Origin: a virus
DNA: 17,046 nucleotides
Reading direction: 5' to 3' (one strand)
IMG/VR virus record: IMGVR_UViG_3300045988_086891
Under the pieces are notes generated by a model. It had not been told where the DNA came from. It did no database searches and saw only the letters and a list, made by a program, of their open reading frames with translations. The translations under genes and the position numbers were made by a program. Shown here piece by piece: positions 1 to 17,046 of this stretch (the stretch's first letter is position 1; each line of letters opens with the position of its first letter).

Positions 1-55
1 CACAATTTGTTTACATTTTGGTCATACGCTGTTCACAACTGGCCTATATAATGTA
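1..55 (+). repeat. Terminal 55-nt element, copy 1 (candidate replication origin and/or promoter; TATAAT at 47..52)
   Basis: cacaatttgtttacattttggtcatacgctgttcacaactggcctatataatgta recurs identically at 194..248. The TATAAT lies 3 nt before the GGGG that opens the 122-nt repeat unit. I could not place a -35 at 16-18 nt spacing. Confidence 0.8.
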
Positions 56-177
56 GGGGTCGTTTCGAAAGTCGAGATTTTTGGTACATCCCATGCACTT
101 CACAGTGGTACAGTGTTAGCACGTCAGCGTGGTACAGTGAGTGCGCGAAGTTAGTTGTGTCTAACTTAGTACCATAG
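56..177 (+). repeat. GC-rich 122-nt repeat unit A (candidate structured ncRNA or protein-binding array)
   Basis: ggggtcgtttcgaaagtcgag...cttagtaccatag, about 58/122 G+C by hand count in a visibly AT-rich genome. Contains no credible ORF. Near-identical copy at 1016..1137, a deletion derivative at 1138..1197 and a mirror copy at 16870..16991. Predicted helices: tggtac(83-88)/gtacca(169-174), gcact-t-cac/gtgagtgc, and hairpin aagttag-ttgtgt-ctaactt. Confidence 0.85.
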
Positions 178-193
178 TACTATATAAAATGTT

Positions 194-248
194 CACAATT
201 TGTTTACATTTTGGTCATACGCTGTTCACAACTGGCCTATATAATGTA
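194..248 (+). repeat. Terminal 55-nt element, internal direct copy 2 (TATAAT at 240..245), upstream of the 300..623 CDS
   Basis: 55/55 identity with 1..55. Preceded by atgtt and followed by c (the terminal copy is followed by g). Confidence 0.9.
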
Positions 249-299: not shown

Positions 300-623
300 A
301 TGAAGCAATATATAAATTTGAATAATGAGATTTTTGAGGTCAAAAAAGTAAAGGGTGAATTGTACCCTATTCGAGAAGTGCGCGGTTTAGGTGATTGTTA
401 TAATAAACCTAGTAGGACAAAACACGAAATTTATAACGAATGGCTGAAATGGTATAAAATAGCTAATATGAATGAAGCAAATTATGCGTTTAGGCATTTT
501 ACAATAAACAGTTATAATTGTATGATGTTTACATTATCAATAGATGTATATGATTCTTCAACTGATAAATTTATAGGCCAGTTATATATCACAAAAACAA
601 GACAAGAGTTTTGGACTATTTAA
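300..623 (+). CDS. Hypothetical protein, ITR-encoded (107 aa from MKQYINLNN...)
   Basis: ORF 189..623 in the track. I prefer the ATG at 300 because aaagg lies 8 nt upstream, and because the first 20 codons of the long version are just the 55-nt terminal element read through. I recognise no family. Confidence 0.6.
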   Translation: MKQYINLNNEIFEVKKVKGELYPIREVRGLGDCYNKPSRTKHEIYNEWLKWYKIANMNEANYAFRHFTINSYNCMMFTLSIDVYDSSTDKFIGQLYITKTRQEFWTI

Positions 624-725
624 AATAGTCGAGTCGGTGCAACTCCGACTTCCTTGTATAGCTGATAGCAGTATCAGCAAGTAACAATCAAACAAGCACA
701 AAAAAAAGAAACGGAGACAAAAACT

Positions 726-1007
726 ATGAGAAAAGAAAAAATGATTACACGTACAATTGTAACTACAAACGCTGACATTATGGCATTTAACTTTGATACT
801 AACGAGGTTATAACTTTAAACGAGTCTTATATTGGTGATTTAAGCGATAAAGAAATTGAAAAGCAGTTTACAATAGATTATAGCAATAGTGCTAAATTCT
901 TAAAACTTGTAAACGCTGAGAAAACATCAAAATTGTATGGTATTTCAGAAAAAGATTTTTTGGAATATGCTGTAGAGCTTGACGAAAACAGAAAAGAGCT
1001 GAAATAA
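726..1007 (+). CDS. Putative phi29 p6-like histone-like dsDNA-binding protein, ITR-encoded paralogue
   Basis: 93 aa, with GGAG 10 nt upstream. Clearly homologous to 13824..14132 (shared MRKxxM[IV]TRTI[IV][ST]T and [KE]LYG[IM]xExDF). From memory these segments resemble phi29 p6 (..REITKTTVNVAKMV.. and ..EVYELPVEKFLEVA..). Confidence 0.7.
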   Translation: MRKEKMITRTIVTTNADIMAFNFDTNEVITLNESYIGDLSDKEIEKQFTIDYSNSAKFLKLVNAEKTSKLYGISEKDFLEYAVELDENRKELK

Positions 1008-1015
1008 TATGATAT

Positions 1016-1137
1016 GGGGTCGTTTCGAAAGTCGAGATTTTTGGTACATCTCATGCACTTCATAGTGGTACAGTGTTAGCACGTCAGCGTAGTACCGTAA
1101 GTGCGCGAAGTTAGTTGTATCTAACTTAGTACCATAG
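1016..1137 (+). repeat. 122-nt repeat unit B (left end only, just outside the ITR)
   Basis: Same length as unit A with roughly 8 substitutions (for example cccatg to ctcatg, cacagtgg to catagtgg, cgtggtacagtgag to cgtagtaccgtaag, ttgtgt to ttgtat). It starts at the first base after the ITR. Confidence 0.9.
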
Positions 1138-1197
1138 GGGGTCGTTTCAAACGTCGAGAAAATCGGTACATCCCATGCACTTCACAGTGGTACCATG
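1138..1197 (+). repeat. Repeat unit C, internally deleted copy in tandem with unit B
   Basis: ggggtcgtttcaaacgtcgagaaaatcggtacatcccatgcacttcacagtggtac joins directly to catg. This resembles the unit end gtaccatag, so it looks like a deletion between two GTAC motifs. Confidence 0.75.
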
Positions 1198-1200
1198 AAC

Positions 1201-1241
1201 ATAAAAATGGAGTGATATGTGTTTTAACATATTACTCCATT
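1201..1241 (-). terminator. Rho-independent terminator of the late operon
   Basis: 15-bp stem (1206-1220 / 1227-1241, one G.U on the - strand RNA), 6-nt loop, then TTTTTAT on the - strand. It lies 7 nt after the stop of the appendage gene. Confidence 0.8.
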
Positions 1242-1247
1242 TGTAAA

Positions 1248-2759
1248 TTATAAATAGAATATATCTAATTTATTTAAATCATTTGCTTTTTGAATTATAC
1301 TTATTTTATTATCATTAATTTTTACTTTTGTAGTACCAACCATAGTTAGATATGTTGTGTGCAAAGGTACAGTTTCAAAGTAGTATAACACAGCATTATC
1401 TGTTTGTAATTCTGTACTTCTTAATACAATTTTTTTTAAAGAATATGGTAATGTAAGTTCATTTTTTATTTCTGTAATTGTACCTAATAATTTATTAAAA
1501 TTAACATTAATAAAATTGTATATAATTGTGTTATTGTACTCCCAGTTTAAAGTATTGGAAGTATAAATATTAGTTGCATGAGTATCGTTAATTGAACCAT
1601 TAATATAGTTATGCAACCCACTACCTCTTATTAGTGTATCAATATAATAATTATCCGTGCTATCATATAAGTAGTTAATAATGTTATATGCTCCGTCAAT
1701 TGTCATTAGTAAGCCACTATGGTCAGTAACTGGTTTACTTGTATCAAAATTATAGTAAGTACCTGCGTGACTGTATGAAAGATTGTTAATGGCATTGTTA
1801 TTACCAACAATATATAACCCAACACAAAACTCTTGTATATCAAAGTTACTGATCATATTTCTACTGCCAGTTAAAGATAACGCAGTTAATGATATTTCAA
1901 AACACTTACTATTTGTGAGCAAATTATTATTATATAATGTAATACCACTTTTGCAAAATGATACTAATATGTCATTAAAATTATTGTCAGTACCAATACA
2001 ATTTAATGCTTTATCGCACCAACTAATTTTACATTCATTTAATACACAGCTTCTACTTGAATTGGACATATTAATACCAGTTTGAAAATAATATATTTCA
2101 ACATTTATTATTGTATTTCTACTATCAGCGCCGTCACCCTTTTCATAATTTAAATTTATTCCATAACTAGGTTTAGTGAAAATACTGGTATTAATTCTAC
2201 CTTTTATTCCTATATTTTTAATTTCATTATTTTTACCAGTAATGTTAAAAATACTTGCATTACCATTTGACGTTATAGTAGTGTTTGTTATGCCACATCC
2301 TATAATAGTTTTATCATCTGTTATTTCTATTGTCTCTGAAATTAAATAAATGCCACTAGGAAAAATAACAGCTTTTCCCGAAGATAAAGCATTCTTAATA
2401 AATACTGTATCATCATGTATGCCGTCACCTTTAGCGCCATACATTTGTGGTGTAACATAAAAGTTAAAATATTTTTGAAATATTAATGTTAATTCACCAC
2501 TTTTTACCATTTCGTCAAGCTTCTTATTAATTTCTTCCTGCACATCAAGATTTTTAAAATAGTTGTCAACATAAGTTTTAAGTGTATTAAATGCACTTTG
2601 TAGTTCATCAAAGTTTTCACTTAATTTATTAACATTTTCCATTGTTTTATTCAAGTAATCGACAACTTTACACAATAACTCATAATAACTTAAGCTATCA
2701 TCATATACCAATGGTAATACCTTTTGACACCAAAATCTAAATGGTCTTAAATCGTTCAT
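1248..2759 (-). CDS. Pre-neck appendage / tail fibre receptor-binding protein with a right-handed beta-helix (pectate-lyase-like) domain
   Basis: The YGAKGDGIHDDTVFIKNALSSGKAVIFPSGIYLI motif is typical of Pectate_lyase_3-type tailspikes. The N-terminal FWCQKVLPLVYDDSLSYYELLCKV anchor followed by a coiled coil is common in Firmicute phage fibres. Last gene of the structural operon, as phi29 gp12 is. GAGG RBS. Confidence 0.85.
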   Translation of the reverse strand: MNDLRPFRFWCQKVLPLVYDDSLSYYELLCKVVDYLNKTMENVNKLSENFDELQSAFNTLKTYVDNYFKNLDVQEEINKKLDEMVKSGELTLIFQKYFNFYVTPQMYGAKGDGIHDDTVFIKNALSSGKAVIFPSGIYLISETIEITDDKTIIGCGITNTTITSNGNASIFNITGKNNEIKNIGIKGRINTSIFTKPSYGINLNYEKGDGADSRNTIINVEIYYFQTGINMSNSSRSCVLNECKISWCDKALNCIGTDNNFNDILVSFCKSGITLYNNNLLTNSKCFEISLTALSLTGSRNMISNFDIQEFCVGLYIVGNNNAINNLSYSHAGTYYNFDTSKPVTDHSGLLMTIDGAYNIINYLYDSTDNYYIDTLIRGSGLHNYINGSINDTHATNIYTSNTLNWEYNNTIIYNFINVNFNKLLGTITEIKNELTLPYSLKKIVLRSTELQTDNAVLYYFETVPLHTTYLTMVGTTKVKINDNKISIIQKANDLNKLDIFYL

Positions 2760-2777: not shown

Positions 2778-3551
2778 TTACCATAAAGTAAAGAAACAAT
2801 CACTACAATCCTCAATAATCATCATATCAATATTGAGAAAAGTCTCTCTAAATTTTTTTAATAAACTGCTATAATTTTCTGTTCCTTGTTTGCCTTTTAC
2901 TGTTTCAATATATTTATCAGTACTATTAATATTTTCTGTACCATTTCCAGTTTTACTATCATCCCTTGTCAACGTATCTGTACTTGTATTAGTAGTCGTA
3001 TTATCTTCATTAACCTTAGTAACTGTAGTTAAAGGTACACTATCAGCAATTCCCTGTGTGTCCATACTATTTTGTGGAGTATCACTAAATCTATTCAAAG
3101 TATTAGTATTACTTGTACCACTTCCACTACTAACATTTTTACTTGTACCGCTATTAGTTTCTCTATTATTACTTGTCCTATTACTTGTACCGCTACCCTC
3201 TCTACTCCTAGTCAAATCCACATCATAAAAAGGATTAAACTCAAGCAACTCGCTTTTATACAACTGATTGTAATAAGGCATAATCTCATTGAGCTTAGCA
3301 TTTAATGCAAGCTTCCACCTGCCTACAGTCTCATGCGCAATCTCTCTTGTATAATAATGTTTCAATATCTTCCTGCACAAAACCTGTCTATAGTTTTCAT
3401 CAAAGATAGGAAAGTCAAAATTAAAAATTTTATTCCAACACCTATCTAAAATACTATCAACATTGTATGCACCCTCACTCTTACTCAAGCCTGCACTATT
3501 TTCACAAATAAATCGTACCTCTGTTGTATACTTACTCACTATTCTCACCAC
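2778..3551 (-). CDS. Lower collar protein (phi29 gp11-like)
   Basis: Lies directly after the portal gene. The N-terminal SKYTTEVRFICE...FDFPIFDENYR...LKHYYTREI pattern is typical of lower collar proteins. The start is non-ATG: GTG at 3551, or GTG at 3539 preceded by ggtggtgag. Confidence 0.8.
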   Translation of the reverse strand: MVRIVSKYTTEVRFICENSAGLSKSEGAYNVDSILDRCWNKIFNFDFPIFDENYRQVLCRKILKHYYTREIAHETVGRWKLALNAKLNEIMPYYNQLYKSELLEFNPFYDVDLTRSREGSGTSNRTSNNRETNSGTSKNVSSGSGTSNTNTLNRFSDTPQNSMDTQGIADSVPLTTVTKVNEDNTTTNTSTDTLTRDDSKTGNGTENINSTDKYIETVKGKQGTENYSSLLKKFRETFLNIDMMIIEDCSDCFFTLW

Positions 3552-4428
3552 CTTTGCCTACGTCAGTTTCATTACTCAAATCTGCTTTATCAACATCATA
3601 AGTATCAAGCACCTGCATGTCCTCTCTATAATCAACACTAATGTTTAATCCAAACATTTTGTTAATCTGCTCACAGGCCTGCTGTCTCATAAACAATCTT
3701 GAATACCTACTAGCAATAGTGCCACCTAAGTTTCTTTGTACTTCATCAGTTATCATTCTTTCTTTCTTTATAGTATTAACATTACTAATACCTAAGTAAG
3801 TTAGCGCTTCATTCCAGTATTGAGTCTTTAACTCATACAGTTTATCGGCAACGTATGGACTTGTTGTATCAAGCGTTTTAATACCGCTTAAGTCTAAGTT
3901 TTTATCACCAAAAATGAATGGTTCATTACCCATATACTGTGCATACAGATTTTTCATCACCAATCTCTGATTTTCAGTACAAGTGATAATCTTAGGTGTT
4001 TTCTGCTGTATAATGTTTACGTCAATAGTTCTCTGTATTTCATACAGCCTTTTACTCATTTCCTGCACATCAAGTATGCTGTTAGTGTGTAACATGTTAT
4101 TAAAAATAATAACACTGTTACTAGGGTCAAGTTTCATTTGATAACCATTTTGTGCAAATGCTGTTCTAGTAATAGGTATTCTGTAAACATCAAGAGCGCC
4201 GCCAATAATAACTTGTAAACCTAAATAACCCATGACTTCATCTTTAAAAAATACTGCCATTCCATCATTGAAAAGTGCTAGTTCTAAGAACCTTGCGTCA
4301 ATAGTATCAGGTAAGTTCTTCCAGTCAAACATTGATATGCTTAATTCTGTTAGTCTATTAACATACTGTAGATATGTTCGCTGATTTTGTAAGAAAGCTT
4401 CGTCCTGCGCTTTTCTTCCTTTTCTCAT
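3532..4428 (-). CDS. Portal / upper collar connector protein (phi29 gp10-like)
   Basis: FDWKNLPDTIDARFLE, QKTPKIITCTENQRL..NLYAQYMGNEPFIF and KKERMITDEV align by eye with phi29 gp10 (FEWENLPPTINPSFLE, QKTPVLIRANDNNQL..QVYNQYEGNAPVIF, KKERMVTDEV). RBS agaggtgag. Confidence 0.95.
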   Translation of the reverse strand: MRKGRKAQDEAFLQNQRTYLQYVNRLTELSISMFDWKNLPDTIDARFLELALFNDGMAVFFKDEVMGYLGLQVIIGGALDVYRIPITRTAFAQNGYQMKLDPSNSVIIFNNMLHTNSILDVQEMSKRLYEIQRTIDVNIIQQKTPKIITCTENQRLVMKNLYAQYMGNEPFIFGDKNLDLSGIKTLDTTSPYVADKLYELKTQYWNEALTYLGISNVNTIKKERMITDEVQRNLGGTIASRYSRLFMRQQACEQINKMFGLNISVDYREDMQVLDTYDVDKADLSNETDVGKGGENSE

Positions 4429-6020: not shown

Positions 6021-7388
6021 TTACGCAACTGTAATAGTTGCTTCGCCATACTTAGTACTATCAAACGTGCTAGTAGCCTTTACAGTAATAGTTCCTGCTT
6101 CAGCATCACTATTAACTTTAAGCATACCAGTACTTGAAATACTAGCCTTAGCACCCTCTTCTGCAATACTCCAAATAACACTCTGTGGTGCATAGTTATC
6201 AGTATCAACAGTATCATTTAGCTGTAACTGACCACCTGCACTAACTGTAGCTGTACTAGGTGTAACTGTAACTTTCTTGACTGCAGGAACACCTGCAACA
6301 AATAGCGCATTGTTTGAGAACGGAGACACGGAAAATGTTTTCCATACATGATACCAGTAGTTCCAATACAGTCCCTCACCATTGTACTGTTCTGTAAAGT
6401 TCTGATAGTTGTCGAATATCATGAACCAGTCACTATCAACCATTACACAAGGTATAGCGTCAAGTGCTTCAAGTTCTTCCTTGTTTATCTCTGTATAAGT
6501 TGGGTCATCAGCAAAGAGAATATTTAATCTCTCGATATCTAAATCTCCGAAACTATCTACAAGTACATGATGTCCGTCAAACTCTGCTCTATCCATATTA
6601 AAAGCACTAGCAAGTACTTCAACATTCATAGTAGCATCAAACTGTGAATTGACTAACAAATACTGTTCCTGCTTAGGTGTATGGTTCATAACTCCTGCAA
6701 GGTTATTCTTTGAGTTAAGGAAAGTAAACTTGTTTGATACTCCCTTGATAGTACTAACAATGCTATTCATGTTTGCTGTGTTAATAGCAGGAATAGTAAC
6801 TGGGTTCATCAGGCCATTTAAAATATGCTTTGCAAGCATATACTTCATAGTCTGAAACTCGTCATAGTTAGCACCAGTATACATAGCATCTACAATCTTA
6901 GCAATCAAATCTGTAATACCGTCAATAGACAAAAAAGCCTGCCTTAACTGGTCATTCGAGATTGTAGCTTTGTAGAATTTCTGATAGTTCATAACGTGAA
7001 AAGCACTACGTACATCAGGAATTTCACGTTTGAATACATTGGACTCTGCAACCTGTGGGTCAAACTGGAACGGTTTTGCGATATTAACAAATACTTCCTC
7101 GATAGACTCACCAAACTCGAGCATACCTTTTTTAAACATAGCCCATGGATTGTCGTATGATTTGCTTGTTAAAATTACTCTGCCTATTCTGTTTACAAGA
7201 GCAGACAAAAACTCATTCTGTAAAGCAGGGTAGTCCATAATTACTGCACCTATTTCTCTGATTGAGTCAGAGTCTGCTGTAGCCTGTGGTACATAATCTT
7301 TGTAATTTGTGCTTGCGTTATTTCTTATTGCATTTAAGATGTCAACGCTTGAATTAGTAAGTGTTTTAATTTTTGGTTTTGTAGCCAT
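6021..7388 (-). CDS. Major capsid protein with a C-terminal Ig-like (Big_2-type) domain
   Basis: 455 aa, downstream of the scaffold gene. The C-terminal VTVTPSTATVSAGGQLQL...ITVKATS...GEATITVA is a typical Big_2 fold signature, as in the phi29 gp8 architecture. RBS agagagg. Confidence 0.88.
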   Translation of the reverse strand: MATKPKIKTLTNSSVDILNAIRNNASTNYKDYVPQATADSDSIREIGAVIMDYPALQNEFLSALVNRIGRVILTSKSYDNPWAMFKKGMLEFGESIEEVFVNIAKPFQFDPQVAESNVFKREIPDVRSAFHVMNYQKFYKATISNDQLRQAFLSIDGITDLIAKIVDAMYTGANYDEFQTMKYMLAKHILNGLMNPVTIPAINTANMNSIVSTIKGVSNKFTFLNSKNNLAGVMNHTPKQEQYLLVNSQFDATMNVEVLASAFNMDRAEFDGHHVLVDSFGDLDIERLNILFADDPTYTEINKEELEALDAIPCVMVDSDWFMIFDNYQNFTEQYNGEGLYWNYWYHVWKTFSVSPFSNNALFVAGVPAVKKVTVTPSTATVSAGGQLQLNDTVDTDNYAPQSVIWSIAEEGAKASISSTGMLKVNSDAEAGTITVKATSTFDSTKYGEATITVA

Positions 7389-9289: not shown

Positions 9290-10330
9290 ATGAGTGAAAA
9301 TAAATACTATGACGGCACTAAATTACTTTCAATGAAAGACATAAATGGGTTAAAGCCTGAGTTATTTATGTGTACTACTAATAGAAGCGGTGGCAAGACA
9401 ACATACTTTGGCAGATTATTAATAAATAGATTTTTGAAATATGGTAAAAAATTCTGTTTAATCTATAGGTATAATTACGAACTGGATGACGTAGCTAATA
9501 AATTCTTCAAGGATTTACAGATATTGTTCTTTAGAAATTATACTATGGAAAGTGAAAGATGCGCGAGTGGTATCTATCATAGTTTGTTTTTAAATGAACA
9601 ACATTGTGGTTATGCTATTAGTTTAAATAGTGCAGACCAGTTGAAAAAATATAGTCACCTGCTTAGTGATACTGATAGTATGTTATTTGATGAATTTCAG
9701 AGCGAAACTAATCACTACTGTAGTGATGAAATAAGAAAATTTATTAGCGTACATACCAGTATAGCAAGAGGCCATGGAGAGCAAGCGAGGTATCTTCCGG
9801 TATATATGTTAAGTAATGCGGTTAGTATTATTAACCCTTATTATACAGAGCTGGGAATATCTGAAAGATTAAACAGTGAAACTAATTTCTTAAAGGGTGA
9901 CGGGTTCGTACTGGAAAGTGGCTTCATAGAAACTGCAAGCAAAGCGCAAAAAGAAAGTGGTTTTAATAGAGCATTTAAGAATAATCAGTATGTTGCATAT
10001 TCAAGTGAGAATGTGTACTTAAATGATAACACTGCTTTCATTGATACACCAGTAGGAAAAGGAAAATATGTTGCAACACTAAGATATATGGGTCATGATT
10101 ATGCAGTGAAACAATACAGTGAGCAGGGTTTCTTATATATTGATGATAAAGCAGATAGTACTTTTAGAAGTAAAATAAGTGTTACTGTTAATGACCATGA
10201 TATTAATTATGTTATGCTAAAACAGAATGATTTGTTTATTAGTCAGTTGAGATACTATTTTGAAAAAGGTTGTTTTAGATTTAAGAACCTTAAATGTAAA
10301 GAAGTCTTATTTAAGACTATTAGTTATTAG
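9290..10330 (+). CDS. DNA encapsidation (packaging) ATPase, phi29 gp16-like
   Basis: Walker A TNRSGGKTT, Walker B MLFDEF, and YMLSNAVSIINPYY parallel to phi29 gp16 CLSNAVSVVNPYF. The INRFLKYGKKFCLIYRY..EL segment parallels INRFIKYGEQFIYVRRYKPEL. Confidence 0.95.
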   Translation: MSENKYYDGTKLLSMKDINGLKPELFMCTTNRSGGKTTYFGRLLINRFLKYGKKFCLIYRYNYELDDVANKFFKDLQILFFRNYTMESERCASGIYHSLFLNEQHCGYAISLNSADQLKKYSHLLSDTDSMLFDEFQSETNHYCSDEIRKFISVHTSIARGHGEQARYLPVYMLSNAVSIINPYYTELGISERLNSETNFLKGDGFVLESGFIETASKAQKESGFNRAFKNNQYVAYSSENVYLNDNTAFIDTPVGKGKYVATLRYMGHDYAVKQYSEQGFLYIDDKADSTFRSKISVTVNDHDINYVMLKQNDLFISQLRYYFEKGCFRFKNLKCKEVLFKTISY

Positions 10331-10892: not shown

Positions 10893-12836
10893 TCACCTCA
10901 TTTCATATGTCGTGTCCACCAATAATACACCACCTTTTATTCTTTTTGGTAGTAATTTTCCAGGGACACATAATCCAGCTTTAAAATCACTATAGTCTCT
11001 TTTTGTTTCTAAAAATTTTAATTCACTTTGCGTATAATTATCACTCTCCTTTGCTTCATAACCCTGCATTGATTTGTCAAATAAATCTTTGCATTTCTGT
11101 GGCATTCCTGCGCATTTAATATCGTTGTATGGTTCATCAATAGGAACTAAATCATTGTGAGTTATGTGTTCTATGTATGTTTTCTGTCTTGTAAAAATAG
11201 CTGTGTCCCAACTGCTTTCAAATTTCCAACAGCAAAATTTCACAGGGTCTACTGTTATACCTTTTATTTTATCAGCAGGCAAGTCACAATGTATACTGTC
11301 AGTGTCAGCGTAAATAAATCCTGCTTTATCTACACCATAGTAATTTTTTTGAGCGGCTGTTATCGTAAAGTTTCGTGCATAGGATGTTATTGCACTACCT
11401 GTTGCTATATGCCCCACCTTTTTATTATTAGCAGGGACTATATAGAAACCAATACTTTCATCCTCTTTTACATATGCAACCTTAAAACTACTGTTGGAAC
11501 TGCTAGCAAGTTTACCATAAAGATTATTGAGAAACAGTTTTGCTTCTGTACGCTTTGCACCTTTGCTATTCATTTTAATTTCTGCATAATGATTGATATA
11601 TTTATCAAATATACCTATAGCAGAATAAAACCAACAACCGTCTAAGATTTCAAAGTCAACTAGTTCATAGTGCTTTAACATTAGTTTATAATCTGTCATT
11701 GTTACTGTCATTATTTGTGTAGTATCTTTTATGTTACCATTAATATCTTTATAGTATCTATTGTAGTTTCCATTTTTATCTAATACATCACTAGTTGTTA
11801 ATGACTCTGTACCTTTATATAAATGATTACCTTTTATTTGAATAAATGGCAACATATTTTCTTTAATATAAAAGCGTGTTTTTATTCTTAAAAAATAATA
11901 TTTATTTTCACCTATTGCTTCGTTAGGTATTATATTACCAGTCCAAAAATATGGTTTACCTATTGGAAAATAATTACCACTTTGCGAGTGCATCATACTA
12001 GGATATAAAGAGTTTACATCAGCTGTCGCTCCGTTATGTCTAACAATATTTTCTTTTCCTTTTACTAAATAGCACCAACCCCCTCTATAGCTGTGCCGTA
12101 TATATTCGTCTGCATTTGATGAACCATAAATATTTTTATCAAGTGTAAATTCATCAAGGGCAGGGAATAAATCATTATAATCATAAGCGCCTAAAGAATT
12201 TTTATATTCTGCTACACAACACGAACCTATTGTTAATTTATCGTGTCCATCATTAAATAACTGTTCAAGTGCTTCTTTAACTACTAATACGTCATTTGCT
12301 ATATATTTCTTTTCTTTATCAGTTATATTGCAACCTGCATATCTGTAGCCAACATATTCCATATCTAATTTTTGGTGCTTTGTTTTAAAAGATTTTCCTA
12401 TTTGCTTTACTGAAAATGGTAATAACTTTAAGCTATCTCTTAATTCGATAAAATGATTATTAACTTTAATAGTAACCATATACCATTGACCCATTGAAGA
12501 TATAGTATATCTAAATGTATTATTTTTCATGTATCTTTCTTTTATAAACTCGCCTTGTGTTCCATCTTCATTAAATGACTCATACGCTTGTTCATATTTT
12601 AAATTCGTTAATAAATATGACAGCCAAAAATTGCCGTCAAATTTAAGATTGTGATAGTATGCTATTATGTCACAATCTAATGACTTAAAATAATTAAACT
12701 GTTCATTTATAGAATGAAAAATCTGAACGTTTTCGGTGTATAATTCTACGCTTGCACTAGCCCACACTTCAGTAGATTTCTGACCCTCATATACTGTAGT
12801 CTCAAAATCACACATAAATTTTCTATAGTTTCTCAT
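10893..12836 (-). CDS. Protein-primed family-B DNA polymerase (phi29 gp2-like)
   Basis: ExoI DFETT, ExoII HNLKFDGNF, ExoIII YIANDV, motif A DVNSLYPS, motif B KLFLNNLYGK, motif C YADTDS. The C-terminal KCAGMP...GGVLLVDTTYEM parallels phi29 KCAGMT...GGVVLVDDTFTI. Confidence 0.97.
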   Translation of the reverse strand: MRNYRKFMCDFETTVYEGQKSTEVWASASVELYTENVQIFHSINEQFNYFKSLDCDIIAYYHNLKFDGNFWLSYLLTNLKYEQAYESFNEDGTQGEFIKERYMKNNTFRYTISSMGQWYMVTIKVNNHFIELRDSLKLLPFSVKQIGKSFKTKHQKLDMEYVGYRYAGCNITDKEKKYIANDVLVVKEALEQLFNDGHDKLTIGSCCVAEYKNSLGAYDYNDLFPALDEFTLDKNIYGSSNADEYIRHSYRGGWCYLVKGKENIVRHNGATADVNSLYPSMMHSQSGNYFPIGKPYFWTGNIIPNEAIGENKYYFLRIKTRFYIKENMLPFIQIKGNHLYKGTESLTTSDVLDKNGNYNRYYKDINGNIKDTTQIMTVTMTDYKLMLKHYELVDFEILDGCWFYSAIGIFDKYINHYAEIKMNSKGAKRTEAKLFLNNLYGKLASSSNSSFKVAYVKEDESIGFYIVPANNKKVGHIATGSAITSYARNFTITAAQKNYYGVDKAGFIYADTDSIHCDLPADKIKGITVDPVKFCCWKFESSWDTAIFTRQKTYIEHITHNDLVPIDEPYNDIKCAGMPQKCKDLFDKSMQGYEAKESDNYTQSELKFLETKRDYSDFKAGLCVPGKLLPKRIKGGVLLVDTTYEMR

Positions 12837-13375
12837 ATATTATCTAAATCAGTAAAACCAAAATATTCGTTAATATCATTAGATTGTATTGCTGATATTC
12901 GTGACATATCGTGATTTGATAATAAAGGTATTAAATCTTCTGTTTTTGCCTGCACTACTTCTGAATATACACTCTCATTTATACTATCTATGGCAGATAT
13001 AATTTCTTCTTCATTTTGTTGTAAATAATACTCGTACTGTTCACTTCCAAAATCTTCTTGCATTTGTTTTATAATTCCTAAAACAGTATAGTAAAAATTT
13101 TCGAGATTATAGTCTATAGCTTCACCGCCATGTGTGTATGCTTGTTTTTTACTAGGTAAAGCCTGCAATCTTGAAATAATACTATCTGTCACTGTATAAG
13201 TTTCTGCGCTTTGTCTTTGTGCTATTTCTGATTGTAAATCTTGCAAAGTATCTTGTGATATTCTTTTTGGAAAAGCTTTTAACCCTTGTGTATTAATACC
13301 TTGTTGCTCTGCTTTGTCTAATATAGCTTGATATGCTTTTTGATTTTTTGATAGTCGTTTCTTTGCCATACTCAT
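12833..13375 (-). CDS. Putative terminal protein (replication primer)
   Basis: The call rests on position only. It lies immediately upstream of the polymerase with an ATGA stop/start overlap, as phi29 gene 3 does. 180 aa with a basic N-terminus and acidic C-terminus, and a strong RBS (agaggag). I recognise no sequence motif. Confidence 0.5.
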   Translation of the reverse strand: MSMAKKRLSKNQKAYQAILDKAEQQGINTQGLKAFPKRISQDTLQDLQSEIAQRQSAETYTVTDSIISRLQALPSKKQAYTHGGEAIDYNLENFYYTVLGIIKQMQEDFGSEQYEYYLQQNEEEIISAIDSINESVYSEVVQAKTEDLIPLLSNHDMSRISAIQSNDINEYFGFTDLDNI

Positions 13376-13823: not shown

Positions 13824-14132
13824 TTATTCTGCGTCTGACTGCTCTGTCTCAATCGCTTTACGTGTAGCAGGGTCAAGTATCTTTGCGCCCTTGATGAAGT
13901 CTGCTTCATCCATGCCATAAAGTTCATTAACTTCCTTGAGTGAACGAATTGCAACAAGTGTGCAAGCATCTGTGTTGTAAAGTTTTGATGATATTTTTAA
14001 TGCTTTGTCCTTGTCAGCAATCTTGCCAGTAAGTGTAAACTCCTGCTCGAATGTCTCAGCAGTCTGTGGATTTACGCATAAAGCTGTGACTGTTGTTGAA
14101 ATAATTGTACGTGTAACCATTGGTTTTCTCAT
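13824..14132 (-). CDS. Putative phi29 p6-like histone-like dsDNA-binding protein (internal copy)
   Basis: 102 aa with an acidic C-terminal tail, the first gene of the replication module. Paralogue of the ITR gene. Motifs MRKPMVTRTIISTT and ELYGMDEADFIKGA. RBS aaaggag. Confidence 0.7.
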   Translation of the reverse strand: MRKPMVTRTIISTTVTALCVNPQTAETFEQEFTLTGKIADKDKALKISSKLYNTDACTLVAIRSLKEVNELYGMDEADFIKGAKILDPATRKAIETEQSDAE

Positions 14133-14568: not shown

Positions 14569-14617
14569 TGCAGTATGACTAATTTATTAACATTCTATGA
14601 ACTTTTTCGTATTTGAT

Positions 14618-14743
14618 TTTCTGTAATTTACGAAAATTTACGAAAACTTATGCAAATTATCCATAAATTTTATTCATCATTTTCTGTAATTTACGAAAAT
14701 TTACGAAAACTTATGCAAATTATCCATAAATTTTATTCATCAT
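14618..14743. repeat. Perfect tandem duplication, 2 x 63 bp
   Basis: tttctgtaatttacgaaaatttacgaaaacttatgcaaattatccataaattttattcatcat occurs at 14618-14680 and 14681-14743. Each copy holds the last 7 codons plus stop of the 82-aa gene and two 10-bp-spaced tacgaaaa motifs. Confidence 0.95.
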
Positions 14744-15562: not shown

Positions 15563-15763
15563 CTATTCTTCAACATCCACTTGTAACATATTCTCGTTTT
15601 CTACAACCTTAAAGGCCACCACTTTCATTTTCTTTAATTGGTTATTTGACATAATTTGTGACTTTCTGTATAGTTCGTATATGTCGTACTGCACATCATG
15701 CAAGCGAAAATTTGTGGTTTTGCTAAATTTAATAAGTGTACCTAGTTTTATATTGTTTGTCAT
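15563..15763 (-). CDS. Hypothetical protein (66 aa from MTNNIKLGT...)
   Basis: ORF 15563..15781 in the track. The first six codons spell the RBS aaagaggtgaaaca for the ATG at 15763. Confidence 0.65.
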   Translation of the reverse strand: MTNNIKLGTLIKFSKTTNFRLHDVQYDIYELYRKSQIMSNNQLKKMKVVAFKVVENENMLQVDVEE

Positions 15764-15803
15764 TGTTTCACCTCTTTTCATTGTTTACTATATTCAGTTG
15801 GAA

Positions 15804-15850
15804 AGCCTATGCGTGGACTTGCACCACGCTGTGCGCTTTATGCTTAGGCT
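15804..15850 (-). other. GC-rich nested stem-loop in the intergenic gap
   Basis: Inner hairpin gcgtgg-acttgca-ccacgc (15811-15829), outer pairing agccta/taggct (15804-15809 / 15845-15850). The outer stem includes the stop codon of the 64-aa ORF. No U-tract. Confidence 0.45.
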
Positions 15851-16038
15851 ATTAATATTAAAATTTCTGAAGAAATTCTAGTAGTTACACAAGACATAAC
15901 AACTTTTACAGAATAATCTAAATATTCTGTTGGAATATTACAAGCCATACCACTCCATAATATTTTTTGCGTTGTTTCATATTGCAATTCTACAAATTGT
16001 CCATCTAAAAATACTCGGTATAAATCTTCTAATATCAT
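15844..16038 (-). CDS. Hypothetical protein (64 aa), first gene inside the right ITR boundary
   Basis: ORF from the track. Its first 7 nt (ATGATAT) lie inside the ITR. Weak RBS (aaagag). Confidence 0.55.
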   Translation of the reverse strand: MILEDLYRVFLDGQFVELQYETTQKILWSGMACNIPTEYLDYSVKVVMSCVTTRISSEILILIA

Positions 16039-16039
16039 A

Positions 16040-16321
16040 TTATTTCAGCTCTTTTCTGTTTTCGTCAAGCTCTACAGCATATTCCAAAAAATCTTTTTCT
16101 GAAATACCATACAATTTTGATGTTTTCTCAGCGTTTACAAGTTTTAAGAATTTAGCACTATTGCTATAATCTATTGTAAACTGCTTTTCAATTTCTTTAT
16201 CGCTTAAATCACCAATATAAGACTCGTTTAAAGTTATAACCTCGTTAGTATCAAAGTTAAATGCCATAATGTCAGCGTTTGTAGTTACAATTGTACGTGT
16301 AATCATTTTTTCTTTTCTCAT
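16040..16321 (-). CDS. Putative p6-like dsDNA-binding protein, right ITR copy
   Basis: Translation identical to 726..1007. Confidence 0.7.
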   Translation of the reverse strand: MRKEKMITRTIVTTNADIMAFNFDTNEVITLNESYIGDLSDKEIEKQFTIDYSNSAKFLKLVNAEKTSKLYGISEKDFLEYAVELDENRKELK

Positions 16322-16423
16322 AGTTTTTGTCTCCGTTTCTTTTTTTTGTGCTTGTTTGATTGTTACTTGCTGATACTGCTATCAGCTATACAAGGAAGTC
16401 GGAGTTGCACCGACTCGACTATT

Positions 16424-16747
16424 TTAAATAGTCCAAAACTCTTGTCTTGTTTTTGTGATATATAACTGGCCTATAAATTTATCAGTTGAAGAATCATATA
16501 CATCTATTGATAATGTAAACATCATACAATTATAACTGTTTATTGTAAAATGCCTAAACGCATAATTTGCTTCATTCATATTAGCTATTTTATACCATTT
16601 CAGCCATTCGTTATAAATTTCGTGTTTTGTCCTACTAGGTTTATTATAACAATCACCTAAACCGCGCACTTCTCGAATAGGGTACAATTCACCCTTTACT
16701 TTTTTGACCTCAAAAATCTCATTATTCAAATTTATATATTGCTTCAT
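16424..16747 (-). CDS. Hypothetical protein, right ITR copy of 300..623
   Basis: Translation identical to the left copy, with the same start-codon reasoning. Confidence 0.6.
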   Translation of the reverse strand: MKQYINLNNEIFEVKKVKGELYPIREVRGLGDCYNKPSRTKHEIYNEWLKWYKIANMNEANYAFRHFTINSYNCMMFTLSIDVYDSSTDKFIGQLYITKTRQEFWTI

Positions 16748-16798
16748 ACTATATACCTTTGATACCCTCGTTGAGTACCCCTTTCCTTTATCTTTAAG

Positions 16799-16853
16799 TA
16801 CATTATATAGGCCAGTTGTGAACAGCGTATGACCAAAATGTAAACAAATTGTG
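16799..16853 (-). repeat. 55-nt element, internal copy in the right ITR
   Basis: Mirror of 194..248. Confidence 0.9.
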
Positions 16854-16869
16854 AACATTTTATATAGTA

Positions 16870-16991
16870 CTATGGTACTAAGTTAGACACAACTAACTTC
16901 GCGCACTCACTGTACCACGCTGACGTGCTAACACTGTACCACTGTGAAGTGCATGGGATGTACCAAAAATCTCGACTTTCGAAACGACCCC
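16870..16991 (-). repeat. 122-nt repeat unit A-prime (right ITR copy of unit A)
   Basis: Mirror of 56..177. Confidence 0.9.
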
Positions 16992-17046
16992 TACATTATA
17001 TAGGCCAGTTGTGAACAGCGTATGACCAAAATGTAAACAAATTGTG
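16992..17046 (-). repeat. 55-nt element, terminal copy in the right ITR
   Basis: Mirror of 1..55. Confidence 0.8.

Follow-up and report, generated by a model that had tools for sequence, protein, structure and literature searches.

The closest described systems are the replication origins of phi29 and PRD1. In phi29, each dimer of the DNA-binding protein p6 covers 24 bp, and the complex nucleates 46-68 and 62-125 bp from the genome ends; sliding-back initiation requires a terminal reiteration, and PRD1, whose template reads 3'-CCCC, initiates at the fourth C and then proceeds by stepwise sliding-back (PMC4974454). Template switching by phi29 DNA polymerase is documented (PMC4176320), and a packaging RNA (pRNA) has so far been described from phi29 and its Bacillus phage relatives alone (PMC11476376). 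Here we analyze a 122-nt repeat unit from IMG/VR virus record IMGVR_UViG_3300045988_086891, a stretch of 17,046 nt (the window, meaning the whole of it) that looks like a complete phi29-like podophage genome of the linear type. A first-pass annotation had described this unit as lying near both genome ends and had proposed either a structured, pRNA-like RNA or an array of DNA sites for p6-like or terminal proteins. Our analysis makes it likely that the unit is the terminal inverted repeat and replication origin of a protein-primed phi29-like linear genome, and that it acts as DNA.

With phi29 the window shares a linear genome, a protein-primed family B DNA polymerase, an origin at each end and a p6-family protein. 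The 24-bp spacing of phi29 p6, tens of bp from the end, has its counterpart in an array at unit positions 21-92; a p6-family protein is encoded in a genome that also carries a 24-bp periodicity tens of bp from its end. By contrast, the inverted terminal repeat (ITR) of phi29 measures 6 bp (AAAGTA) and has an A3 terminus, whereas the ITR core here is a modular unit of 74-170 bp with a G4 terminus; and phi29 p6 reads bendability rather than a motif, whereas here there is an explicit GTGGTAC iteron, with a p6-like gene inside the ITR itself. In its genome end, 5'-GGGG with template 3'-CCCC, the window resembles PRD1 (Tectiviridae), a tailless virus that infects Gram-negative hosts and is not related to this phage. 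New sequence lying outside an old terminus is a further likeness, shared with the template-switch products of phi29 and with the termini of adenovirus, in which terminal sequences are spontaneously reiterated; polymerase template switching is reportedly also the subject of two earlier papers cited in PMC4176320, to go by their titles (Esteban 1997 and Murthy 1998). Unlike the template-switch products, what appear here are nested fossil termini, arrays of up to six units and an ITR of ~1 kb that are fixed in natural lineages, and literature searches found no paper describing such fixed fossil termini in phi29-like phages. The unit is also like phi29 pRNA in size (117-174 nt), in its place beside the genome end and in the company of a gp16/gp10 packaging motor, but it has neither a covariance-model match nor covariation, is modular in length and lacks a sense promoter where it is terminal; it is not a member of that family. 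Compared with these systems, the unit is probably a terminal origin repeat in an unusually modular, dynamic form.

The unit at the ends of the DNA

The repeat family and the parts of the unit are as follows, with window coordinates and with a strand named only where one was assigned.

1..55, plus strand: 55-nt prefix, an exact copy (55 nt, 100%) of 194-248 (block V), ending ..CCTATATAATGTA
16992..17046, minus strand: mirror of the 55-nt prefix, from the repeat search
56..177: unit A, terminal repeat and predicted replication-origin region, from contig ends and adapter junctions of relatives
16870..16991: right-end mirror of unit A, inside the ITR
1016..1137: unit B, apparently a buried former left terminus, which starts on the base immediately inward of the ITR
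1138..1197: unit C, a partial and apparently older relic unit, with 52/60 bases matching unit A; it stops at a point in register with GGTAC
56..81: terminal box GGGGTCGTTTCGAAAGTCGAGATTTT, a G4 reiteration within a near-invariant 26 bp, containing the TTTCGAAA palindrome
76..147: array of three degenerate 24-bp repeats, each with (G)TGGTAC as its anchor, at unit positions 21-92
148..167: palindrome AAGTTAG-N6-CTAACTT, whose 7 pairs never vary in 23 units and whose 6-nt spacer alone changes

The first-pass annotation had already placed full copies at 56-177, 16870-16991 and 1016-1137 and a truncated one at 1138-1197, and all four are confirmed at those positions. Its estimate of ~48% GC for the unit in a genome of one-third GC agrees with the computed 47.5% for unit A (44.3% for unit B) and 31.8% for the genome. 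The unit was also said to hold no credible open reading frame (ORF), and indeed none of ≥40 aa lies within 56-177, while unit B is overlapped by short antisense ORFs only. Units A and B are identical at 116/122 positions (95%), the six mismatches falling at unit positions 36, 48, 76, 81, 84 and 104. The ITR, 1-1015 and 16032-17046, is 100% identical between its two arms, and the mirror unit at 16870-16991 falls inside it. Two further relations had escaped the earlier reading: window 1-55 exactly copies 194-248, and the start of unit B coincides with the ITR boundary.

Human-gut metagenomes are rich in relatives of this phage. Some 100 related contigs were collected, and these supplied both the unit-bearing ends and the comparisons of genome bodies. 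Of the 28 distinct contig ends that bear the unit, 18 have their first base in the G-run or in the TCG next to it, and at three further ends (L045, L194 and L220) a TruSeq adapter is fused to the G-run. In ODYJ01001197.1 (16866 nt) the TruSeq universal adapter is joined to TGGGTCGTTTCG at both ends (L220 and L194), and in L045 the read-2 adapter is joined to GGGGTGGTTTCG; all three ligation-type adapter junctions fall on the G-run. One more contig (L013) starts with a 2-nt CT that is possibly an adapter remnant. The unit is present at both ends of contigs 3300029203_000022, Ga0256404_1007750 and OPXH01001427, and it stands in inverted orientation at the two DNA ends, as a terminal inverted repeat does. 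Because contig starts and TruSeq junctions coincide at the G-run, the physical DNA terminus, as judged from these ends, is GGGGTCG..., at window 56 and its mirror 16991. The earlier placing of the unit near both genome ends was right as to location but too cautious, the unit being the end itself and not merely close to it. Branching of the assembly graph at the repeat, as another way for contigs to start at GGGG, was considered and excluded by the adapter fusions and by the lack of a common 55-mer between units A and B.

Other clades have starts of their own. A sister clade at ~90% polymerase identity (L026, L029, L037 and L044) starts uniformly with 5'-CCCTGGTAC..., that is 5'-CCC(TGG), and shares with the unit the 3' 75 nt alone. 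Relatives at 65-69% polymerase identity (L052, L057, L062, L074 and L076-L078) start with 5'-TTTGCCCCTTTAA..., that is 5'-TTT(GCCCC). Since the sister and the distant clades each share a common start, such contigs capture termini. The first base is reiterated in the terminus of each clade, and the initiating nucleotide appears to change between close clades (G, C, T). In the clade of the window, the terminal 5'-GGGG would supply the reiterated terminal nucleotide on which sliding-back depends.

Conservation was read from an alignment of 23 units from the window and its relatives. Each has a terminal 26 bp, a variable middle, an invariant dyad and the ending AGTAC(C/T)ATAG. The near-invariant terminal 26 bp is GGGGTCGTTTCGAAMGTCGAGATTTT, in which columns 1-5, 7-11, 13-14, 16-22 and 26 are invariant; the G-run is mostly 4 nt long (3-4) at termini and 2-6 nt at internal junctions. 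In the variable middle, GGTAC recurs at window 83, 107 and 131 (unit 28, 52 and 76, a spacing of 24 and 24), with additional occurrences at unit 100 and 124 in longer units. A lag of 24 gives the highest self-identity in the window unit, 57%, a value reached by 6/20000 shuffles. Tandem Repeats Finder (TRF) detected period 24 in the relative L045; in the window the 24-nt repeats are too diverged for TRF and are detected by autocorrelation. Among relatives there are 0-4 such modules per unit, unit lengths step by 24 (74/76, 95-99, 118-123, 143-146 and 170), and module losses are always in register at GGTAC. The AAGTTAG-N6-CTAACTT dyad, drawn as a hairpin in the first-pass annotation, is equally a candidate dyad-symmetric protein-binding site.

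These features suggest a mechanism for initiation. The terminal 5'-GGGG (template 3'-CCCC) would serve PRD1-like sliding-back initiation by the complex of terminal protein (TP) and DNA polymerase, which would initiate as TP-dGMP on 3'-CCCC. The 24-bp array would be a nucleation site at which the phage's p6-family proteins open the end for initiation, by analogy with phi29, in which there is one p6 dimer per 24 bp and nucleation lies 46-125 bp from the ends. The earlier idea of a DNA site array for p6-like or terminal proteins thus pointed in the right direction, in view of the terminal repeat, the 24-bp GTGGTAC array and the two p6-family genes.

The repeats and dyad of the terminal unit might instead mainly control the early promoter, as an operator array, and not replication. 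The region in question is:

178..248, plus strand: linker (178-193) and block V (194-248), with a conserved TGTTCACAATTTGTTTACA motif and TATAAT at 240-245

This region is a putative early promoter for ORF1 and ORF2. The invariant dyad lies ~80 bp upstream of the block V TATAAT, and in phi29 the end-bound p6 complexes act as repressors of early promoters as well (PMC4974454), both of which would suit an operator; however, left-end units that stand promoterless beside the terminator and tail-fiber gene (L121 and L173) keep the terminal box and dyad. Control of the early promoter as the main role is therefore improbable, although the two roles are not exclusive.

Internal copies and the 55-nt prefix

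In a close relative, OGLX01001002.1 (L196), the left contig end is unit B, complete with the B-specific single-nucleotide polymorphisms (SNPs) and followed by two partial units. Because unit B is thus the left contig end of a close relative, its copy in the window is, on this comparison of contigs, a buried former terminus. Likewise, the left terminal unit of L121 and L173 adjoins the very terminator and tail-fiber gene that in the window come after units B and C. Two features mark the two sides of this arrangement.

1009..1022: junction of ATGATAT and then GGGGTCG, at which the first 7 nt of the right-end ORF 15844-16038 (minus strand) join the old terminus
1202..1248: long hairpin that separates the unit stack from the tail-fiber gene, a probable bidirectional terminator; its minimum-energy fold has a 16-bp stem

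Outside unit B, the window carries 960 nt copied from the right end. The ATGATAT+GGGG junction recurs in L268, an independent MEGAHIT assembly from another sample, and in L269 a different junction lies 34 nt deeper in ORF2. Both window-specific junction strings are missing from a set of 267 loci; contigs collected beyond that set contain the junction of ORF2 and unit B. Further junctions in other genomes read ..CTATATA+GGGG, ..TATAAT+GG, ..TGTTCACAAT+GGGGGG, ..CACAAT+CCCTGG, ..CCTATAT+CCTGG and ..ATGAT+GGGGG, and every such junction ends at a G-run or at CC(C)TGG. Tandem arrays reach six units (L213), and stacked partial units like unit C are found in L122, L196, L213 and L189. The ~1 kb ITR duplicates ORF1 and the p6-family ORF2 (300-1007 and 16040-16747); in 3300029203_000022 the two genes are at the right end only. 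The duplication of ORF1 and ORF2 is a gene-dosage change from end remodeling.

We propose that units B and C, and the tandem arrays of relatives, are fossil termini. On reaching the 5' end of its template, the polymerase would switch to an internal position on a strand ending at either terminus and copy outward, which would either extend the ITR (here to ~960-1015 bp, duplicating ORF1 and the p6-like ORF2) or make direct tandem copies. A more far-reaching version of this proposal treats the ends as telomere-like. That units are re-added by template switching, with the GTGGTAC iterons being p6 sites whose copy number (0-4) tunes origin strength, is a possibility we advance tentatively; to see the nested fossil termini, the arrays of up to six units and a growth of the ITR from ~100 bp to ~1 kb as the outcome of such telomere-like behavior is conceivable to much the same degree, and we lean slightly away from it.

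The outermost 55 nt of the window call for a separate explanation. Contigs that run past a G-run overshoot it by exactly one assembler k-mer, which amounts to 55 nt for the window and for L197 and L213 (both SPAdes contigs), to 127 nt for L268 (MEGAHIT, k127) and to 118/119 nt for L269 (k119). Such a k-mer-long overshoot is characteristic of a graph edge whose origin is a branching vertex. To judge from its length and content, window 1-55 is most likely a vertex prefix (k=55) left by an assembler of the SPAdes type, and position 1 is unlikely to be a true terminus. The reads would then contain a V|GGGG junction, pointing to some molecules with at least one further outward copy of unit, linker and V. 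The TATAAT on which the first-pass annotation had remarked is where it was said to be, at 47-52, with unit A beginning 3 nt further on; because it belongs to the duplicated 55-nt block, it is not a dedicated promoter, and in the mechanism proposed here it would be a by-product of the same duplication that adds units. In another contig (L039), the start is a fold-back artifact around a 12-nt palindrome, CACTGCGCAGTG.

Could the repeat family and the long ITR themselves be assembly artifacts, collapsed or chimeric de Bruijn repeats with no biological duplication behind them? In favor of such an origin, the length of window 1-55 equals one SPAdes k-mer to the base, contig breaks fall exactly k nt ahead of G-run junctions, and the two ITR arms are 100% identical over 1015 nt. 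But a k-mer prefix needs reads that span the junction, the junction of ORF2 and unit B recurs in another sample and another assembler (L268, k127), and unit stacks with differing SNPs occur in many samples and assemblers. Moreover, units A and B differ at 6 positions and have no common 55-mer, so they cannot have collapsed together. We regard an artifactual origin as very improbable.

Several observations nevertheless weigh against the unit being a terminal origin with the history outlined above. The physical end has been deduced from where contigs stop and where adapter sequence is left; untrimmed Nextera adapters are also seen at contig ends that are not termini (L019 and L059), and the adapter junctions of ODYJ01001197.1 read T-GGG, not GGGG. 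Assembly collapse may account in part for the ITR being perfectly identical over 1015 bp. Most junctions lack microhomology, which leaves the template-switch route plausible but unproven. Phi29 p6 recognizes bendability, so a sequence-defined 24-bp iteron could bind another protein, and the candidate TP ORF at 12833-13375 gives no family match in PHROG and Pfam scans.

RNA and mobile-element readings

According to the first-pass annotation, the unit could be an abundant structured RNA, possibly a divergent pRNA, folded as a three-helix junction. It would have to be transcribed in sense from the TATAAT at 47-52 or in antisense from a promoter in the linker. The window does encode a gp16-type ATPase and a gp10 connector, and both the size of the unit and its place at a genome end would suit a pRNA. 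That phi29-like phages in general need such an RNA was, however, too broad a premise, since it is known to date from phi29 and its Bacillus phage relatives only (PMC11476376). Rfam cmscan of the whole window at E<=10 assigned no family, pRNA included, to the unit or its mirror on either strand, and a rerun on 1-1300 with laxer filters at the same threshold again gave no match to the unit (56-177 and 1016-1197).

The proposed fold fares little better. The three helices can be drawn, with 95.6% of cells pairing across the 23 homologs, and the plus strand of the unit folds at -37.1 kcal/mol (z -2.25); but z is -1.66 for the minus strand and -1.8 for unit B, and these fold energies are unremarkable. 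Covariation of the helices, scored at 0.048, equals what shuffling yields (mean 0.049, with 367/500 shuffles reaching the observed value). Compensatory double changes number 1 in 427 cells, a count in which the closeness of the sequences limits power, and the hairpin stem is invariant while its loop varies. A pRNA would keep a constant architecture and length, whereas the units run from 74 to 170 nt and change in 24-nt modules; as a result of these modular indels, 4/23 units lack the 5' strand of helix 2. The apparent helices are largely a consequence of the iterons themselves, whose sequence is repetitive and palindromic (GTAC, CAGTG/CACTG and GCAC/GTGC).

Transcription raises a further difficulty. 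Because the unit starts at the DNA end in relatives, a sense-strand promoter upstream of it is impossible there. In antisense, a weak promoter-like TAAACA-16-TATAGT on the minus strand (206-179), in the conserved linker, faces the genome end, but in the antisense strand the frequent G-U pairs of the drawn helices turn into C-A, in 10/19 and 11/19 sequences at two pairs. The site at 206-179 could give an antisense run-off transcript of the unit. Taken with the missing Rfam match, the absence of covariation, the 24-nt length steps and the lack of any possible sense promoter where the unit is terminal, these results make a structured RNA or divergent pRNA highly improbable, marginally more so than an assembly artifact.

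Least probable of all is a small mobile or selfish element (of the miniature inverted-repeat transposable element type, or homing) inserting into phage genomes, which would suit the several copies per genome, the sharp G-run boundaries, the GC content above that of the host genome and the two alternative 5' modules (GGGGTCG.. and CCCTGGTAC..), but not copies that are only terminal or stacked just inside, always face one way with respect to the end, lack target-site duplications and are absent from the ~14-kb body of each of ~100 relatives, nor the lack of a transposase or homing-endonuclease gene among the ORFs scanned and of anything but chance matches in collection scans outside this phage group.

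In those scans, a 19-nt degenerate unit pattern gave 30 matches in genome contigs, all by chance and in unrelated GC-rich bacteria, and because all are chance matches they carry no host information; about three quarters of its matches in metagenome contigs were also due to chance. An exact 29-nt unit pattern had no match in IMG/VR, the window's own unit variant being absent from that collection.

Gene content and the early region

The genes that identify the window as phi29-like, and those that bear on its replication, are listed below.

726-1007, plus strand: p6-family dsDNA-binding protein gene (ORF2), phrog_6370 'dsDNA binding protein', E 2.7e-6
1248-2759, minus strand: tail-fiber gene
3532-4428: Phage_connector (gp10) gene, by profile match
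6021-7388: major head protein gene
9290-10330: Podovirus_Gp16 ATPase gene, by profile match
10893-12836, minus strand: protein-primed family B DNA polymerase, PF03175 DNA_pol_B_2, E 1.2e-39; phrog_1907
12833-13375, minus strand: terminal-protein candidate ORF, directly upstream of the polymerase, by position only
13824-14132, minus strand: second p6-family paralog, phrog_6370, E 4.2e-6

Lower collar, tail and pre-neck-appendage-like genes were also recognized. ORF2 lies within the ITR, and so has a second copy at 16040-16321 (minus strand); it shares 29% identity (E 1e-9) with the paralog at 13824-14132. Neither p6-family ORF has a Pfam match, and a tblastn search of phages with ORF2 returned a single weak, unannotated match. 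ARAGORN found neither tRNA nor tmRNA in the window. In an INPHARED megablast, the sole match was the major capsid gene, at 74% nucleotide identity to Clostridium symbiosum phages CS229P1-3, which by this measure appear to be the nearest isolates.

Block V is conserved in relatives, and the TGTTCACAATTTGTTTACA motif persists even in L078 (~170-200), at 65% polymerase identity. TRF finds within this motif an 11-nt repeat, TGTTCACAATT, in 2.5 copies (window 190-217). Lying upstream of the early TATAAT, the TGTTCACAATTTGTTTACA motif probably serves as a promoter or operator of the early genes; a sigma-70 promoter scan did not score block V as a canonical site.

A different element of the early operon has the covariation that the unit lacks. 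This T-loop-like RNA motif occurs at 606-690 (plus strand), with a mirror at 16357-16441 (minus strand), and a second one lies at ~15812-15860 (minus strand). It consists of an outer helix around a 6-bp hairpin, the loop of which (GG-UGCAAnU-CC) does not vary. Across 30 diverse copies from relatives, compensatory double changes are seen at 4/6 stem pairs (for example UA 12, GC 12, CG 4, AU 1); judged by eye, the outer helix covaries too. A genome has 1-3 copies, and each precedes the ribosome-binding site of an early gene by 40-60 nt. Rfam gave a sub-threshold Tymo_tRNA-like match on 606-690 (25.6 bits, against a gathering threshold of 40), and no match for the second element in a search of 15740-15900 at E<=10. 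It is this motif, not the unit, that is the genuine candidate for a structured RNA near the ends. Elsewhere in the early region, a perfect 63-nt tandem duplication (2 x 63 nt, 100%) occupies 14616-14741, in non-coding sequence.

For this group of phages, the analysis removes a tempting but wrong pRNA candidate outside the Bacillus phages, and it fixes the true ends, with a G4 terminus, of an abundant, uncultured, phi29-like group of the human gut. End prefixes one k-mer long on contigs of such phages should be annotated neither as promoters nor as termini. The modular 24-bp array beside a p6-family gene offers a concrete substrate for asking whether p6-type origin activation also operates outside the Bacillus phages. 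Together, the terminal, buried and stacked units appear to form a natural record of end remodeling in protein-primed genomes, in which the history of ITR extension and tandem reiteration may be read in place.

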